A stretch of 64,000 nucleotides of DNA from Bacteroidia bacterium (lineage in GTDB: Bacteria; Bacteroidota; Bacteroidia; SXHM01). Each line of letters opens with the position of its first letter. The stretch's first letter is position 1. Shown piece after piece: positions 29,956 to 62,139 of the stretch. The DNA is taken from assembly GCA_022072225.1 (NCBI GenBank), contig JAJVIC010000003.1, forward strand, positions 28,688 through 92,687. Direction: 5' to 3'. The notes below the pieces were generated by a model. It did not search any database. It had not been told where the DNA came from and saw nothing but the letters and a program-made list of their open reading frames with translations. A program made the position numbers and the translations under genes.

Positions 29956-32556
29956 CTAAAGCCCTATGCCCACTACCATTACATCATCTACCTGATCTTG
30001 TATACCTTTCCATTGTTCAAAGCGGTGAATGAGTTCTTCTTTTTGCTGTTCGGCAGCAAGGGGTGATACTTGCTCCAGTATGGTGATGAATTGGTTGAGT
30101 CCGATTTTTTTGTTTCGGGGTCCGCCAAACTGATCGCGGAAACCATCGGTGAAGAGGTAGAGCATATCGCCTTGTTTATACGCTATTTGTTGTGTTACAA
30201 AATGTTTGCGCACAGAGATGATGTATTTGCCAAGTCCGTAGCGGTTTGCTTTATGGAGGTTTGCTGTTTTAGCTGAAACAATTACTGCCGGGTGGTTTGC
30301 TCCGGCAAATTGTATTTTTTTGTTTTCGCGGTCTATAACGCAGAGGGATATGTCCATGCCGTCTTTTACAATTTCTTGTTTTTTCTGGGGCAATACTTTT
30401 TCTAATTCATAGTCCATTAGTTCCAGTATTTCGGAGGGGTTTATTATGCCTCTGTCAATAATTATGTGGTTAAGCATTTCAATGCCTATGATGCTCATGA
30501 AGGCTCCGGGAACTCCGTGTCCGGTGCAGTCAACGCAGGCTATTATAAGTTTGTTTTGTTTTTGGTGGAACCAGCAGAAATCACCGCTTACAATGGTGCA
30601 GGGTTTATTGAGGATGAAGGAGTGTTTGTGTTCGCGTTTGAGTATTTCTATGCTGGGGTATAGTGCTTTTTGCAGGCGTTGGGCATATACAATGCTGTCG
30701 GTAAGGTCTTTGTTTTTGCTTTCTATTATTTCTTTCTGGATGTTTATTTCTTGGGTGCGCTCGGCTACTTTGGTTTCGAGGGTGAGCATGGTTTTACGGT
30801 AGATTTCGGCTTTTTCGTTTTCGAGTTTTACCAGTTCGGTTATGTCTTGCATGGTGCCGGTAAGGGCTGTTATTTCGCCTTGTGGGTTTGGGGTTTGGCT
30901 TCCGCGGGCTTCAATGTGTTTTAGTTGGCCTGCATGGGTAATAATTCTGAAACGGTTGGGGCCGGTTTTTTTTGTTCCGTTTACGGTGTAGATGTTGGTT
31001 AGCACGCGTTCTTTGTCGTTGGGGTGTATAAAATCAAAGAGGCGTTCGAGGGTAAGGGTATGGTCTTGCTGTGTTATTTCGAACAGGGTGAGCAGTTCAT
31101 CGCTAAAGGTTATGCGGTTTGTTTCAAGGTTTAATTCCCAGCTGCCTACTTTGGCTATGCGTTGGGCTTCGCGCAGTTTTTGTTCGCTTTGGTGTATTTG
31201 GTTTTCTGATTGTTTGAGTTGGGTGATGTCTTCTTTTACGGCCAGGTAGTTGGTGATGGTTCCGTTGTTGTCAACAATGGGCGAAATAAGGGCGCGTTCC
31301 CAGTAAAGTTCTCCGTTCTTTTTTTTGTTGTGCAGTTCGCCTTTCCATTCTTTTCCGGCCGAGATGTTGTTCCAGAGGGTTCCATATTCTTGGGTGGTGG
31401 TGTGGCCTGATTTGAGGATGCGGGGGTTTTTGCCTATTACTTCTTGCGGGGTGTAGCCGCTGGTTTGGGTAAATTTTTTGTTTACGTATTGTATGTTTCC
31501 TTCTGTATCGGTTATTATAATGGTTGCCGAGCTTTGTTCTACCGCTTGCGATAGTTGTATTATTTGGTGTTGGGCTGCTTTGCGTTTGGTGATGTCTTTT
31601 ATGGAGTGCAGGGTTAGCAGGCCTTCGCGGGTTTCAATGGTGGTAAAGGCTATTTCGCAGGCAAAGGGGGTTTGGTCTTTTTTTATGCCGGTGTATTCGT
31701 GTTCATTTTCGTTGGGGTGTTGGGTAGTTTTTTTGGGTATCAGGTTTATAGCGGGGCTGCCTATTAGTTCTTTTTGGGTGTAGCCAAAGAGGCTTAGTGC
31801 CCGGTGGTTGGCATACTGTATTTGGCCTTGGGGATTGGTGCTTATGATGGCATAGGGTACGCCTTGCAGCAGTTGGCGAAAGCGCACTTCGCTTTGGTGC
31901 AGTTCTTTATTTTGGGTTTGCAGGCGTTGGTTGCTGCGGTATACCATGTACCCTATTATAAGCAGTATTATAAGGGTGAGCAGCAGCAGCAGGTTGATGA
32001 TGGTTTGGGTGTGGGTGATGTTGCGGTTGATGCCTTTACCTTTTAGGGTGCTTTGGTTAAGGTGGTGGGTTGATAGGCTATCGGTGGTGGCAAGAAACTG
32101 GTTGAATAGGGGTAGTTCCTCTTGATGAAAATAGCGGATGGCTTCTTGCATCTGTGTTTTGCTAAGGGCTAAAACGGTTTGGCGGTGGGCTGCCAGGTTT
32201 TCGCGTTTAGCAAGCATGGAATTAATGAGTTCTTTTTCGGTGTCATCTTCTGCAAGGGTTTGCAGTAGTTCAAGCCGGTTTTTGTTATCCTGGCTTAGTT
32301 TGTTTATAAGGCTTTCAAGGTTTTGGCGCTCTGCGGGGTCTTGGCTTTCAACTAAGTTATCGGTTGATAGCTGGAGTTGAAACATGTCGTTTCTGAAATC
32401 GTGGATGAGTTGGTTTTTGAGTATCAGCGTTTCGCTTAGGTTGCTGATATTACTACTTAACCTGCTTGCCGAAAAATAGAGCATCAGGGCTGCTGCGGCT
32501 AATACTGCCGATAGCAGCAGGTAGCCGATTACTATGTTGATGCGGGTATTGGGCAT
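29956..32556 (-). CDS. four-helix sensor + multi-PAS + SpoIIE/PP2C phosphatase
   Basis: Start MPNTR at 32556; two TMs, three PAS/PAC, VSGDF, DCTGHGVPGA, FTDG, QVDD. Confidence 0.9.
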   Translation of the reverse strand: MPNTRINIVIGYLLLSAVLAAAALMLYFSASRLSSNISNLSETLILKNQLIHDFRNDMFQLQLSTDNLVESQDPAERQNLESLINKLSQDNKNRLELLQTLAEDDTEKELINSMLAKRENLAAHRQTVLALSKTQMQEAIRYFHQEELPLFNQFLATTDSLSTHHLNQSTLKGKGINRNITHTQTIINLLLLLTLIILLIIGYMVYRSNQRLQTQNKELHQSEVRFRQLLQGVPYAIISTNPQGQIQYANHRALSLFGYTQKELIGSPAINLIPKKTTQHPNENEHEYTGIKKDQTPFACEIAFTTIETREGLLTLHSIKDITKRKAAQHQIIQLSQAVEQSSATIIITDTEGNIQYVNKKFTQTSGYTPQEVIGKNPRILKSGHTTTQEYGTLWNNISAGKEWKGELHNKKKNGELYWERALISPIVDNNGTITNYLAVKEDITQLKQSENQIHQSEQKLREAQRIAKVGSWELNLETNRITFSDELLTLFEITQQDHTLTLERLFDFIHPNDKERVLTNIYTVNGTKKTGPNRFRIITHAGQLKHIEARGSQTPNPQGEITALTGTMQDITELVKLENEKAEIYRKTMLTLETKVAERTQEINIQKEIIESKNKDLTDSIVYAQRLQKALYPSIEILKREHKHSFILNKPCTIVSGDFCWFHQKQNKLIIACVDCTGHGVPGAFMSIIGIEMLNHIIIDRGIINPSEILELMDYELEKVLPQKKQEIVKDGMDISLCVIDRENKKIQFAGANHPAVIVSAKTANLHKANRYGLGKYIISVRKHFVTQQIAYKQGDMLYLFTDGFRDQFGGPRNKKIGLNQFITILEQVSPLAAEQQKEELIHRFEQWKGIQDQVDDVMVVGIGL

Positions 32557-32684
32557 AAGGTGCGAGGGCCGGATATGCGTTTTTTTAAAACCGAATGCTA
32601 TACGCACAAAGGGTTATAAAAGTTGGAAGCATTTTTAAGAAAGAAAAAACTCCCCAATAGTTGTCCTTTTGGTCATATACCTGC

Positions 32685-32698
32685 ATGAGCAAAATCAT
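32685..32698 (+). promoter_or_regulatory. Crp/Fnr-type operator
   Basis: ATGA-GCAAAA-TCAT-AGTTT; TTTG at 32725-32728 on + strand. Confidence 0.75.
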
Positions 32699-32778
32699 AG
32701 TTTTTGCTGACACAGCGCATTTACTTTGGCGCGAACAAAACAGTCCACTACATGGTAAAGGGTTATATTAAAACTTCA

Positions 32779-32860
32779 AGGGCTGCCTACATCTTAAGGC
32801 GGGCTACGCTGCTGTGGGGGCAGCAAGCCCTGCCCGGTGCAGGGGGTGAGCCCTCTGCAG
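32779..32860 (+). other. GC-rich double hairpin, possible structured RNA leader
   Basis: GGGCT-ac-GCTGC...GCAGC-a-AGCCC (32801-32830) and TGCAGGGGG-TGAG-CCCTCTGCA (32838-32859). Confidence 0.45.
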
Positions 32861-32928
32861 GTAAATACCTCACTTGTTACGATAATGAACAGGACTTTTG
32901 GTTTCAACCTGTTAGCGGCAACCCTGAA

Positions 32929-33213
32929 ACTGCCGGCAATTTGCCAGCCACTGCCGGCAATAAGTCAGCCACTGCCGGCAATAAGTTAGCCACTGCCGGC
33001 AATAAGTTAGCCACTGCCGGCAATAAGTCAGCCACTGCCGGCAATAAGTTAGCCACTGCCGGCAATAAGTCAGCCACTGCCGGCAATAAGTTAGCCACTG
33101 CCGGCAATAAGTCAGTCACTGCCGGCAATCAGCCATCCACTGCCGGCAATCAGCCATCCACAGCCGGCAATAAGTTAGCCACTGCCGGCAATAAGTCAGT
33201 CACTGCCGGCAAT
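32929..33213 (+). repeat. 21-bp tandem array, 14 copies of ACTGCCGGCAAT with 9-nt variable linkers
   Basis: Cores every 21 bp from 32929 to 33202; linkers aagttagcc, aagtcagcc, aagtcagtc, cagccatcc, ttgccagcc. Confidence 0.95.
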
Positions 33214-33261
33214 TATTCACATATATAACTCAATATACATTAACCCTAACCCTAAAAACCT

Positions 33262-33951
33262 ATGGCAACAGACTTTGTAAAACAAAACGACCTCGAGTTT
33301 GTAAGTCAGCTCGAGCAAATGAAAGCTAACCTGCCCACCTATCTGGCAGTTCTGGGGCTGTCGGCAGCCGACATGGGGCTTGCCAACACCATGGCCGATG
33401 CCATGGCATGGATAGTATTGCGCAACAATGCCGCACCCGGTTTTACGCAGGACTGGAGCAAACTGCGTGACCAGGTGCGCCTGGGCATTGGAGGCGATAT
33501 TCTGCAACCCATGCCCGTACCCCCCGATGTTACTACCCCACCGGCTATCATACCGGTTAACATCGAGAAAAAATACCGGGCCCTGGTAAAACGCATAAAA
33601 AGTTCTGATGCCTACACCACCGGAATAGGCGAAAACCTGGGCATTGAAGCGCCCAAAACCATTCCCGATTTCAGCACCTACAAACCCGTGTTTAAACTGA
33701 AACTCACAGCCGGGCAGGTGCTTATAATCTGGAAAAAACTGCAGGCACAGGGCATAAATATTTATAAAAAGGTTGACAACGGGGCATGGTTTAAACTTGA
33801 TTTTGATGGCACCCCCAACTACCTTGATACCAGCGCCACACCCCCCGCAGGCATTACCCAAAACTGGAGCTACAAACTGCGCTACGTAAAAGGCGATGTT
33901 GAAGTAGGCGAGTTCAGTGATGTGATGAGCATTACCGTGGCAGGGGCGTAG
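33262..33951 (+). CDS. uncharacterised protein, helical N-terminus and FN3-like C-terminus
   Basis: 229 aa, no signal peptide; RALVKRIK...YTTGIGENLGI, W.K...G..IY, WSYKLRY...VGEFSD. Confidence 0.8.
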   Translation: MATDFVKQNDLEFVSQLEQMKANLPTYLAVLGLSAADMGLANTMADAMAWIVLRNNAAPGFTQDWSKLRDQVRLGIGGDILQPMPVPPDVTTPPAIIPVNIEKKYRALVKRIKSSDAYTTGIGENLGIEAPKTIPDFSTYKPVFKLKLTAGQVLIIWKKLQAQGINIYKKVDNGAWFKLDFDGTPNYLDTSATPPAGITQNWSYKLRYVKGDVEVGEFSDVMSITVAGA

Positions 33952-33968
33952 GAAACAGAAAAAGTATT

Positions 33969-34001
33969 AAGGTTCTGCCTTACTGAAAGGCAGAACCTTT
34001 T
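33969..34001 (+). terminator. intrinsic terminator
   Basis: AAGGTTCTGCCTT-actga-AAGGCAGAACCTT 13-bp stem plus T tract. Confidence 0.85.
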
Positions 34002-34404: not shown

Positions 34405-35442
34405 ATGATTTATAAATTCAATCTCATTGAAAAAATACTGCTCAACAACGATATAATACCCCATCCCTTTGCCGATGCCTCCTCATCCGTAGGGCTGGGC
34501 TTTGCACTGGGCTGCTCTGTAAAACTTAAAATAGCCGATGCTCTTAAAACCGAATACCAGCCGGTAAGCACCATAGCCGCAAAAGCAGGAGTAAGCGAAA
34601 TAGGCTGCGAACTTATACTCGACTGCTTAGATGCCCTTGGCTACGTGCAGAAAAAAGAAAACAACTACGCTTTTACCAAACGCGGATACAAAACACTTTC
34701 ACCCCAATCGCCCCAAAATTTCAGGTATTTCATACTCTTCTGCGATTACCTGTATAAAGGATATGCCAACATTGACCAAACAATTATACTCGGGCACCGC
34801 CCCGAGTCAAACATGCTTGAAAAAATGAGCGACCATGAGTGGGAGCTGTTTTCAAGAGCCATGATAGACATTTCAAGAACCAATGTAAAAGAAGTATGCG
34901 GTAAAATACCTGTAGCCAAAACAGCCGTCAAAATGCTCGACCTCGGAGGCTCACACGGGCTATACAGCATAGAACTATGCAAAAAAAATCCCCAACTTAA
35001 AGCCACCATCATAGACCTTCCACCGGTAAAAAAATACAATGACGAGTGTGTGGCAGCGCATAATGCAGGCAAACAGGTTTCATTCATCCCCTCCGATTTT
35101 ATGAAAGATAAACTGCCCCAGGGTAACCACATTATACTTGCCTTCAACATCATCCACGGACTTAACCCCCGCGAAAACCAGCAGCTTGCCAAAAAAGTAT
35201 TTGAAGCACTTAACCCGGGCGGTATCTACGTAATTCTTGACCAGATAAAAGGAATAGGCGGCAGCTCACAATTATCAAAAGCAACCACCTCCTATATGGC
35301 GCTAAACCTGCTGCATCAGGCAGGCGGCAAAACCTATTCAAAAAACGAAGTAGATGAAATTGCCTACAAAGCAGGCTTTGAAAAAACCGAACTCAAAAAA
35401 CTAAACGCCCCCGGATTTGGCGTAATTATTTGTAAGAAATAA
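34405..35442 (+). CDS. O-methyltransferase family 2 with dimerisation domain
   Basis: LDCLDALGY, MLDLGGSHG, DLP, FNIIH, LNPGG. Confidence 0.9.
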   Translation: MIYKFNLIEKILLNNDIIPHPFADASSSVGLGFALGCSVKLKIADALKTEYQPVSTIAAKAGVSEIGCELILDCLDALGYVQKKENNYAFTKRGYKTLSPQSPQNFRYFILFCDYLYKGYANIDQTIILGHRPESNMLEKMSDHEWELFSRAMIDISRTNVKEVCGKIPVAKTAVKMLDLGGSHGLYSIELCKKNPQLKATIIDLPPVKKYNDECVAAHNAGKQVSFIPSDFMKDKLPQGNHIILAFNIIHGLNPRENQQLAKKVFEALNPGGIYVILDQIKGIGGSSQLSKATTSYMALNLLHQAGGKTYSKNEVDEIAYKAGFEKTELKKLNAPGFGVIICKK

Positions 35443-60832: not shown

Positions 60833-61169
60833 TAGCTCAACCTCAGCAATGGCTCACTTATTCCAAGGAATGGCTGGCTTATTCCAAGGAATGGCTCACT
60901 TATTCCAAGGAATGGCTAGCTCAACCTCAGCAATGGCTCACTTATTCCAAGGAATGGCTAGCTCAACCTCAGCAATGGCTCACTTATTCCAAGGAATGGC
61001 TAGCTCAACCTCAGCAATGGCTCACTTATTCCAAGGAATGGCTCACTCACTCCAAGGAATGGCTGGCTCACTCCCTGCCTTCCGGCTCCCACTCCCTGCC
61101 GGCAATACGTTAGCCACTGCCGGCAATAAGCTGTCCATTGCCTTCCGTCAGTTACTTATTGCCTTCCCT
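60833..61169 (+). repeat. mosaic 21-bp-phased tandem array (11 AATGGCT units, then CTTCC and CGGCAAT units)
   Basis: AATGGCT every 21 bp from 60848 to 61058; register continues at 61079, 61100, 61121, 61142. Confidence 0.93.
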
Positions 61170-61176
61170 ACACCAA

Positions 61177-61344
61177 AAAGGGGAGCCCCTATCCAGAAAG
61201 GGGGACCCCCTGCGCGAAAAAGGGGAACTCTTGCATGAAAAAGGGGAGCCCCTATCCATAAAGGGGGAGCCCTTGCGCGAAATAGGGGAGTCTCTACACC
61301 AAAAAGGGGAGCCCCTATGTGAGAGAGGGCCCCCCCCTGCACCC
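61177..61344 (+). repeat. 21-bp tandem array, 8 units with palindromic AGGGG-AG-CCCCT core
   Basis: aaaggggagcccctatccaga-type units; translates as KGEPLxx. Confidence 0.88.
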
Positions 61345-61428: not shown

Positions 61429-62139
61429 ATGAAAAGATTAATTTATCTTATTCCTGTTCTCCTTCTTTTTACTTCATGCCTAAATGACAAAGGAGAAGTT
61501 TGCACCAATTTGGATATTGTAATCAACCATAAGGTGGGCGGAGATGCCCTGCAATACAATATGTATAACTACACCAATGCAGCCGGAAACCTTTACGAAG
61601 TAACCGCCCTGCGCTATTACCTTACCAACTTTGTTTTTCATAACAGCGATGGTTCTCAATATGCCAACAACGGTATATATTATGTTGATGCAAATGATGC
61701 CGGCACAACTACCATAAAAATTACCGAAATGCCGGCAGGAAATTATAACGGAATATCATTCAAATTAGGGCTTACACCTGCACAAAATATTACAAACAGT
61801 TTGCCTAACATTACCGTAAATAATAACATGGCTTGGCCCGACCAAATGGGCGGAGGTTATCATTTCATGAAATTTGAAGGTCATTTTACATCCGGCAGCG
61901 GTCAAGCCGATGGATTTGCCATACACTTAGGCACCGATGTAGCTTTGGTAAACATCCATTTAGACCAACTATTTGAAACCAAAGAACAAACCACCACACT
62001 TAACCTGAGCATGAACCTGAACGAATGGTTTACCAACCCAACTACATTTGACCTCGACAGTCTGAGCTACACCATGGGTAACCCATCAGGAATGGCATTA
62101 GTAGCAGCAAATGGAGCAGATGTATTCACCATTGAATAA
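61429..62139 (+). CDS. mbnP: MbnP family copper-binding lipoprotein
   Basis: Start MKRL, lipobox TSC, LRYYLTN, G.Y.GISF.LG, GYHFMKFEG, IHLG; adjacent to diheme peroxidase. Confidence 0.8.
   Translation: MKRLIYLIPVLLLFTSCLNDKGEVCTNLDIVINHKVGGDALQYNMYNYTNAAGNLYEVTALRYYLTNFVFHNSDGSQYANNGIYYVDANDAGTTTIKITEMPAGNYNGISFKLGLTPAQNITNSLPNITVNNNMAWPDQMGGGYHFMKFEGHFTSGSGQADGFAIHLGTDVALVNIHLDQLFETKEQTTTLNLSMNLNEWFTNPTTFDLDSLSYTMGNPSGMALVAANGADVFTIE

Follow-up and report, generated by a model that had tools for sequence, protein, structure and literature searches.

A row of near-identical 21-bp units lies just upstream of a gene for a 229-amino-acid (aa) protein in a 64,000-nt stretch of DNA from a Bacteroidia bacterium (assembly GCA_022072225.1, contig JAJVIC010000003.1, positions 28,688 to 92,687 of the forward strand), which we refer to as the window and number from its first letter. 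We found that the pairing of such an array with a gene of this family, here called F229, is real and conserved while the sequence of the array unit turns over. The array represents a class of cis elements that is real, conserved and, as far as a literature search shows, undescribed. In the reading that we favor, with about even confidence, the array would be a helically phased row of binding sites for small regulators, controlling the downstream gene, whose product carries an FN3-like domain. An earlier note on this DNA, made from its letters alone, had proposed an undescribed array-plus-gene unit; our full-text literature search supports this, having returned no account of arrays with a 21-bp period in front of genes like these (supplementary files, of which those of PMC4679880 list Bacteroidetes repeat loci, lay outside its scope).

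The array and its gene

By direct count, the array consists of 14 cores, ACTGCCGGCAAT, in perfect register, joined by 13 nine-base linkers of five kinds (TTGCCAGCC once, AAGTCAGCC three times, AAGTTAGCC five times, AAGTCAGTC and CAGCCATCC twice each); unit 12 has a changed core, ACAGCCGGCAAT. Tandem Repeats Finder (TRF) also reports the array (Table 1), the direct count bears out the layout of 14 cores and five linker variants given in the earlier note, and the palindrome it had placed inside each core is read directly in every one as the 8-bp TGCCGGCA. With at most one mismatch allowed, ACTGCCGGCAAT occurs 14 times in the array and twice more in a second place in the window (Table 1), as against 0.38 expected in shuffles, 0 of 100 of which reached 16. 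The exact 12-mer is found nowhere else in contigs C1-C10 of the assembly, and a genome-wide search with it, made as a lead to the regulator, returned scattered single one-mismatch matches. RNA from the array, if transcribed, would form 8-bp stems paired between neighbors (-115.1 kcal/mol, z = -8.1). The 229-aa gene 48 nt after the array and the terminator that follows it were also found as the note had them.

Table 1. Positions of the array, its gene and surrounding features in the window
Feature	Position	Strand	Remarks
Sensor gene (883 aa), divergent neighbor	29956-32607	-	4HB_MCP, then PAS domains, then SpoIIE/PP2C phosphatase domain
Candidate -7-like promoter box TTTACTTTGG	32720-32729	+	200 nt 5' of array; unproven
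ATG-started open reading frame (ORF) through array	32752-33228	+	TAGNKxA heptads; ends 34 nt 5' of 229-aa gene
Three GC-rich stem-loops between candidate promoter and array	32798-32870	+	ViennaRNA
21-bp tandem array	32929-33213	+	TRF: period 21, 13.6 copies, 91% matches, score 451
G-free, A/C-rich 48-nt spacer	33214-33261	+	with CATATATAA (33219-33227) and TTAACCCTAACCCTAAAA
229-aa gene (family F229)	33262-33951	+	48 nt 3' of array
Terminator-like hairpin ending the unit	33969-33999	+	13-bp stem, 6 GC pairs, 5-nt loop
O-methyltransferase gene	34405-35442		Methyltransf_2 and dimerisation domain
Mosaic of three 21-bp arrays	60833-61318		AATGGCTCACTTATTCCAAGG x10, two ACTGCCGGCAAT units, AAAAGGGGAGCCCCTATCCAG x7
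Two more units (CCTGCCGGCAAT.., ACTGCCGGCAAT..)	61095-61127	+	inside the mosaic

Conservation of the array-gene pairing

The F229 gene of the window has four paralogues in the same genome. Three of them are preceded by an array of period 21, 42 or 84 bp, each with a unit of its own, that ends 43-62 nt 5' of the ATG, and the region upstream of the fourth is AT-rich and gave no array with TRF. A first search of other genomes found an upstream array at all six F229 loci, in metagenome-assembled genomes labelled uncultured Chitinophaga sp., Bacteroidetes or Bacteroidia. The metagenome orthologue L007 encodes a protein 85% identical to that of the window, behind a 21-bp array of 8.9 copies whose sequence is unrelated; its DNA aligns with the window over the gene and the 31 nt ahead of the ATG (from 33231) only.

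We then turned to an even sample of the class, comprising 401 genomes, 32 of which, in 15 of 200 genera, carry the F229 family. This second search gave 30 loci, and 24 were left after setting aside the window itself and five loci with less than 300 bp of upstream sequence. An upstream array of period 21, 42, 63, 77 or 84 was present at 17 of the 24, four of these being weak (L012, L026, L028 and L037, scores 73-78), and one more locus had a period of 104; the six others (L016, L023, L025, L029, L035 and L036) had no array or another period. Two loci are common to both searches, as L009 and L011 are apparently the same places as L005 and L006. Running a tandem-repeat finder over the flanks of homologues, a check set beforehand, was therefore positive, with arrays at most loci, and the unit sequence was different in every F229-family array found. 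In addition, homologous genes often start about 60 bp from a contig end (for example G232:C67:64-750, G007:C28:61-693 and G179:C55:62-715), which fits assemblies breaking in the upstream array.

A genome-wide class of 21-bp arrays

TRF on the whole assembly listed 211 rows of period 21, compared with 24 of period 20 and 17 of period 22; periods 42, 63 and 84 gave 75, 44 and 24 rows, and periods 28 and 35 gave 2 and 1. More than 100 arrays lie on contigs of 100 kb to 1.3 Mb. The circular self-identity of 92 21-mers was 0.30 at a shift of 7 versus 0.25-0.31 at other shifts, and a heptad sub-structure was rejected, as there was no excess identity at shift 7. The 42-mers, with a self-identity of 0.54 at shift 21, are two diverged 21-mers. 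In the absence of a 7-bp sub-period, and with 42-mers repeating at 21, the basic unit is therefore 21 bp.

Arrays with a period of 7n bp, n being a whole number (7n arrays), were found 217 times outside long ORFs and 38 times inside. When ORFs flanking 109 7n arrays of at least 80 bp were clustered, they formed families with the array nearly always on the upstream side, a placement shown for families and not for every array. Eight array-associated families were recognized: a family whose C-terminus is a CarboxypepD_reg domain, three families of about 236, 239 and 319 aa with no Pfam match, a 214-aa fn3-like family, a 113-aa XRE helix-turn-helix (HTH) family, a 318-aa pair, and F229. An iterative HMM search did not link F229 to the other array-associated families and converged on five members. 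The class counts given below refer to the 44 arrays that precede genes of the eight families. Self-complementarity, with a fold z below -2 (mean -3.2), was found in 27 of the 44 and did not differ between sense and antisense (p = 0.13); such dyad symmetry with no strand preference is as expected for double-stranded sites of dimers. Among 120 arrays there were 16 groups of unit sequences common to 2-8 loci, which is what small regulons would look like.

Separate, true heptamer arrays, (AGTCCAT)n and (TAGTCCG)n with their complements, occur at five loci on C1, C2, C3 and C4, often as head-to-head blocks (for example C1:489371-489460, C2:172048-172212 and C4:178766-178847), and recall the cyanobacterial STRR. 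Contigs C11-C55 mostly have 53-70% G+C, compared with 38-42% in C1-C10, a shift that probably reflects contamination by another organism.

Regulator genes beside the arrays

Genes for small DNA-binding proteins are enriched beside arrays, the background being the 3.8% of the genome that lies within 600 bp of one. Within this distance we found 8 of 16 LuxR/GerE-like ORFs, including six of the seven shorter than 120 aa, and all five of the XRE 'HTH113' genes. Of the 11 LytTR (PF04397) hits, three are followed after 126-240 bp by an array and are encoded on the same strand as the gene behind it; these are the short, divergent hits without other domains. A fourth, sub-threshold LytTR ORF also precedes an array. 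The proteins encoded beside sister arrays are 80-116 aa long if GerE/sigma-region-4-like HTH and 113-162 aa if LytTR-only, with LytTR-only ORFs at C1:1010668-1011066, C2:345612-346100 and C4:3431-3868. The gene order is regulator, array, effector, and the same regulator folds stand before arrays of five or more effector families. GerE-like genes precede the arrays of two F229 paralogues, and a small HTH-like gene or a LuxR-type response regulator flanks the array at the foreign F229 loci L005/L009, L030, L010, L013 and L018; the calls for the last three were read by eye from ORFs rather than by family scan, and the other foreign loci have unrelated neighbors.

In the small GerE-like HTH proteins encoded before F229 arrays (C2:539310-539603 and C2:671465-671740 in this genome, L005:2238-2507 and L030:777-1046), the HTH is preceded by an invariant basic motif at the N-terminus, MKNK.TG...PLPP.K, which may be a DNA-contacting arm. 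Complex prediction for a GerE-like HTH protein and its cognate F229 paralogue, made without control runs, scored 0.00 and is no evidence either way.

Sequence and coding capacity of the F229 arrays

Counts for the F229 family rest on 22 arrays, four from this genome, 14 from L009-L033, and those of L001, L002, L004 and L007; L003 is added in the half-site and skew counts only, making 23. L005 and L006 were excluded as duplicates, and L026, L028, L032 and L037 as weak or distant. A weak common theme is the half-site GGCA/TGCC, which occurs 0.65 times per 21 bp in the 23 arrays, 0.19 times after shuffling and 0.12 times in the 40 arrays from other families. Motifs such as GGCAA(C/T) and AATCATT also recur, always pointing the same way. 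An A/T skew is absent (12/23), and the C/G skew is weak (15/23).

The arrays as a class are not coding. Stop codons interrupt every sense frame in 15 of the 44, and open frames are as common on the antisense strand (32 of 132) as on the sense strand (40 of 132). The F229 arrays themselves are depleted of stop codons: 46 of 66 sense frames are open, versus 23.3 +/- 3.5 in column permutations, 0 of 500 of which reached 46, and 22 of 66 antisense frames are open, with 19.8 expected. Every one of the 22 has an open sense frame, and nine are open in all three. At the same time, ATG occurs 0.26 times and CAT 0.57 times per unit, with an underlying bias of CA over TG on the sense strand. Nine arrays open in every frame, together with the depletion of ATG and the CA-over-TG bias, therefore do not indicate ordinary coding, and the oriented common motifs may explain the scarcity of stop codons. 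Outside F229, the seven remaining families have 15 of 40 arrays without any open sense frame, and the two strands hardly differ in open frames (31 of 120 sense, 30 of 120 antisense).

In the window, the ATG at 32752 does read open through the array to the stop at 33228, as had been pointed out, in frame with a listed ORF at 32704-33228. We consider that this ORF is probably not a gene in its own right. A test for coding heptads found one frame open here, but all frames stop-poor across the family and the peptides unrelated. With 15 of 44 arrays lacking an open sense frame, the variable heptad peptide suggested earlier fails for the class as a whole; for the F229 family, whose arrays are depleted of sense-strand stop codons, it keeps a small probability.

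Promoter and leader

The promoter that had been placed at 32685-32728 could not be verified: a strict TAnnTTTG box is absent from this region, the + strand gave no match of sigma-70 type, and all that it contains is the -7-like TTTACTTTGG. Boxes of the form nTTTG(C/G), read by eye with no scripted count, stand 60-205 nt 5' of the arrays in most homologous loci. Of 15 loci, none has the strict box between array and ATG and just 2 have it upstream of the array, and a sigma-54 GG-N10-GC promoter is absent between array and gene, where the spacer holds no G. A TAAC(C)..TAAAA motif lies 10-25 nt 5' of the ATG in 9 of 44 array genes, versus 29 of 2522 other long ORFs, and is present here at 33238-33258.

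The GC-rich hairpins of the leader were found where expected; the fold of 32790-32875 (-41.1 kcal/mol) has z = -3.0 against 100 shuffles, and because no T-run follows them, the stem-loops are not terminators. No second copy of the leader (32641-32928), spacer or terminator regions was found elsewhere in the genome, and Rfam at gathering thresholds gave 0 matches in the window. Four F229 loci have dinucleotide repeats, (GA)8-17, (CA)17 or (CT)n, between the candidate promoter and the array (C1:~115990-116010 in this genome, L012:1-35, and the upstream regions of L019 and L033); such repeats are a hallmark of slipped-strand phase variation.

The 229-aa protein

The AlphaFold (AF2) model, built on a 14-row alignment, has a mean pLDDT of 84.8 and combines a helical N-terminus (helices at 10-31, 35-56, 66-74, 101-113 and 120-126) with a C-terminal FN3-like beta sandwich (144-227). 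The best Foldseek matches in the PDB are all FN3 domains (TM on target 0.65-0.71, E about 2e-4), in agreement with the FN3-like product read from the sequence earlier. No signal peptide is evident, and the first 80 residues are acidic to neutral by inspection. Profile searches gave 0 Pfam, 0 PHROG and 0 PDB sequence matches, with no NCBIfam family near its cut-off, and no relatives were found in IMG/VR (two peptide patterns), 50,697 phage records or 72,556 plasmid records. The ESM Atlas holds unnamed clusters from Bacteroidota and Verrucomicrobiota, and at 50% identity the family comprises 2758 clusters at E<=1e-3 and 1519 at E<=1e-10.

Variation, transcripts and habitat

Near-identical DNA was found in 14 runs of 7 studies labelled bioreactor, wastewater, sludge or 'metagenome'. 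In one of these runs the flanks agree, and the linker variants at 33137-33197 are displaced in order by what looks like one unit. In a DNA run, contigs join the array locus with 61095-61127 (loose ends). Contigs from RNA libraries cover 32628-32781, 32988-33125 and 33262-33602, and those of a third RNA run, from another study, lie over the gene only. As these data consist of contigs, with neither strand nor ends readable, the uncovered parts, depth ratios and strand are uninformative.

Interpretation of the array and its alternatives

The array would offer one protein-binding site per 21 bp without coding for protein, and because 21 bp make two turns of B-DNA, all sites would face the same side of the helix. 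The binders are likely small, sensor-less DNA-binding proteins such as those encoded beside sister arrays (GerE/sigma-region-4-like HTH, LytTR-only or XRE), and as no such gene stands beside the window array, its binder would act in trans. We infer binding of protein to the array, cooperativity along the row, activation or repression, and the start of transcription. Changes in unit number from strain to strain could serve to tune or switch expression. More tentatively, and with less than even confidence, we suggest that the unit is one case of a three-part cassette widespread in Bacteroidia and neighboring phyla, made up of a small sensor-less regulator, an array of 5-19 sites that is phased at 21 bp and private to its locus, and a small protein with a helical part and a beta sandwich. 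The regulator may polymerize along the array as an all-or-none switch that varies heritably through unit gain or loss and through the dinucleotide repeats of some leaders, so that a large contingency-gene family would share a new control architecture in which regulator and effector folds are mixed freely and the 21-bp rule is fixed.

Several observations weigh against binding sites as the explanation. No promoter was found between the array and the ATG, across 48 nt without any G, and post-array spacers are G-poor to about -60 (3.7, 8.0 and 10.7% G per 20-nt bin, versus 12.1, 15.7 and 17.8% in controls); a G-poor, leader-like spacer with no promoter after the array means that the array may be inside the transcript. 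Pieces of the array do occur in RNA-library contigs (X15/X16, from one sample), where DNA carry-over is possible. No regulator gene adjoins the window array, and 0 of the 11 PF04397 hits are on its contig, C7. The HTH proteins before the array at C2:538907 and that of L005/L009 are 78-81% identical, with one change in the presumed recognition helix, and their arrays are hardly alike beyond TGCCAA. Arrays adjoining LytTR genes are palindromic and not plain direct repeats. The F229 arrays strongly avoid stop codons on the sense strand, and the class shows a weak strand bias, with A exceeding T in 32 of 44 arrays (p = 0.004) and C exceeding G in 29 of 44 (p = 0.049). Finally, 13 of 71 spacer arrays lie in convergent spacers, which is no depletion relative to their share of length, as judged from crude gene calls.

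Part of this would suit a promoter near 32720 and an array lying within a 5' leader of about 530 nt that acts as RNA, through stability, a roadblock, attenuation or an RNA-binding protein, an account that we regard as unlikely. The -7-like TTTG(C/G) boxes ahead of most F229 arrays and the lack of a strict box behind them (0/15) are consistent with it, as are the G-poor spacers, the RNA-library contigs over parts of the stretch, the stable fold of the array RNA, the excess of A over T in the class, and the oriented motifs and CA-over-TG asymmetry of the F229 arrays; a comparable idea appears in PMC4679880 for TAACTGA heptamer repeats before start codons. However, a strict 21-bp period is natural for B-DNA and meaningless for single-stranded RNA or A-form helices, the fold energy is equal on the sense and antisense strands, and palindromes with 0-2 nt between their arms (TGCCGGCA, GTGCC-GA-GGCAC) are unable to form hairpins alone. 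The F229 arrays also have no A/T skew and a weak C/G skew, Rfam has no match in the window, and the RNA evidence is contigs without strand or ends. Alternatively, the array could be a functionless, self-perpetuating minisatellite, prone to slippage and unequal exchange near fast-evolving genes, with an inherited period. Unit order and number do vary between metagenomes with near-identical flanks, each locus has homogenized units whereas orthologues have unrelated ones, contigs of assemblies often end some 60 bp ahead of the homologous gene, and the 13 of 71 arrays in convergent spacers point the same way. We nevertheless judge this very unlikely: pairing with one gene family persists over 15 of 200 sampled genera despite randomized sequence, dyad symmetry and a family-specific half-site are retained, the distance from array to ATG is narrow (43-62 nt in the F229 units of this genome), and arrays have an excess of regulator genes beside them. 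Period 21 is about ten times as frequent as either 20 or 22, and therefore indels in the unit are not tolerated. The neutral variable-number tandem repeat that the earlier note had named in its refutation agrees with the observed variation between strains and is opposed by the persistence of the array across families of a class.

Still less likely is an upstream ORF, here 32752-33228, that is translated through the array, either into a variable repeat peptide or because translation itself protects the leader or couples to the gene. Each of the 22 F229 arrays is open in at least one sense frame. In 18 of 22 loci the array is spanned by an ATG-started ORF, whose stop precedes the main ATG by anything from a few nt to some tens of nt and which in L004 enters the gene in frame; since the arrays may share descent, the permutation test overstates their independence. 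One coding frame cannot explain nine arrays open in all three, and ATG itself is depleted, within a general CA-over-TG bias tied to oriented motifs. The peptides have no common leader, composition or motif, the differences between units in the window are almost all non-synonymous, and in the other seven families many arrays are closed, with sense and antisense strands alike. The least likely of these accounts, in our estimate, has the 229-aa protein docking on its own array, as DNA or RNA, to autoregulate or assemble there, which the earlier note had proposed in casting this protein as the array's partner. Array and gene co-occur, each gene copy has a private array, and the GGCA/TGCC half-site is specific to F229 arrays with or without an adjacent HTH gene. 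The protein itself speaks against this, as its model combines a helical hairpin with FN3 and matched no HTH, RHH or other nucleic-acid-binding structure, PDB profile and Pfam searches were empty, and the first 80 residues look acidic to neutral. Seven other, unrelated effector families are preceded by arrays of this kind, and HTH or LytTR genes stand beside many arrays, so that a shared, separate class of binders is simpler.

Comparison with known systems

The unit fails a defining feature of each of the closest known systems, and it works most like LytTR operators and BvgA-type multi-dimer sites. Upstream of the Bordetella fha and ptx promoters, the NarL/FixJ-type regulator BvgA~P binds as three to four dimers in steps of about 22 bp, on one face of the helix and at degenerate sites. 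The likeness lies in the GerE/LuxR-type HTH, as GerE-like HTH genes precede two paralogous F229 arrays here; in contrast, the window array has 14 near-identical units, the HTH-only proteins (80-116 aa) have no receiver domain, and the unit sequence is fully turned over between orthologues. Plasmid iterons and centromeres (F sopC, 43 bp x 12; R1 parC) are long, phased direct repeats with an inverted-repeat core that become coated with protein. The arrays here are likewise long, tandem, helically phased and built on an inverted-repeat core, but a Pfam scan of the neighbors found no rep or par genes nearby, and more than 100 arrays are on chromosomal contigs, each by an ordinary small gene.

LytTR regulators, according to PMC6193735, bind 9-bp direct repeats separated by a 12-bp spacer, which gives a 21-bp period, just upstream of the -35 element. 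Compared with the operators of the HdrR/BrsR and AgrA/ComE type as described there, the period here is 21.0 over 14 units, and the regulators can likewise be small stand-alone LytTR proteins, three to four genes for which precede sister arrays. Those operators have two direct repeats, whereas the arrays here have 5-19 units; the ACCnCTTA-like 9-mer consensus is absent, the core being a 12-mer with an 8-bp palindrome; and there is no LytTR gene at this array, whose partner gene encodes an FN3 protein and not a membrane inhibitor. As for the placing of the repeats 4-11 bp upstream of -35, the G-free 48-nt spacer has no recognizable promoter.

BrickBuilt of Porphyromonas gingivalis, according to PMC4596501, is an intergenic minisatellite MITE (miniature inverted-repeat transposable element) with a 23-nt unit, located 49-591 nt from genes and having promoter activity. 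Like it, the array is a Bacteroidota intergenic minisatellite with a unit of about two helical turns. BrickBuilt, as described there, is one sequence family of 19 copies with a common leader, tail and inverted ends, whereas here each locus has a private unit, the leader and tail of this locus are unique in the genome, and the period is strictly 21 bp. The TAACTGA and cyanobacterial heptamer repeats of PMC4679880, some of them in Bacteroidetes, are forward-oriented, shortly before start codons and proposed as regulator sites. Their unit is a fixed 7 nt, in contrast to the 21-bp unit of free sequence and no 7-bp sub-period found here. A CRISPR array was rejected on the grounds of a 12-nt core with 9-nt linkers of five kinds, as against repeats of 23-50 bp with unique spacers; Rfam gave no CRISPR-DR match in the window, and Cas genes were not searched for.

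Neighboring genes and the second site in the window

By Pfam scan, the unit is flanked by a divergent PAS/SpoIIE gene and an O-methyltransferase gene (Table 1). The minus strand of each array unit reads TGGC-N7-TTGC, loosely like a sigma-54 -24/-12 element facing the sensor gene, probably by chance. The DNA of the O-methyltransferase gene is 89% identical in two genomes of the same genus, and as neither of its flanks aligns there, the gene or the whole region has moved. The neighbors in the window are common to none of L001-L037, and no empty site or insertion border was found among these loci. The mosaic of arrays lies in a single spacer of 740 bp, with an efflux-pump-like gene on one side and, starting at 61429, a lipoprotein-like ORF of 236 aa on the other; arrays can therefore evidently share or exchange units.

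Significance

If the reading as a phased row of binding sites is true, these bacteria would have promoters with up to 19 identical, helically phased sites, as against the two to four of textbook operators, at over a hundred genes per genome, and the breaking of assemblies of these genomes just upstream of such genes would be explained. It would amount to a new regulatory design, cooperative and possibly tunable by length, tied to a very large protein family that has no annotation.

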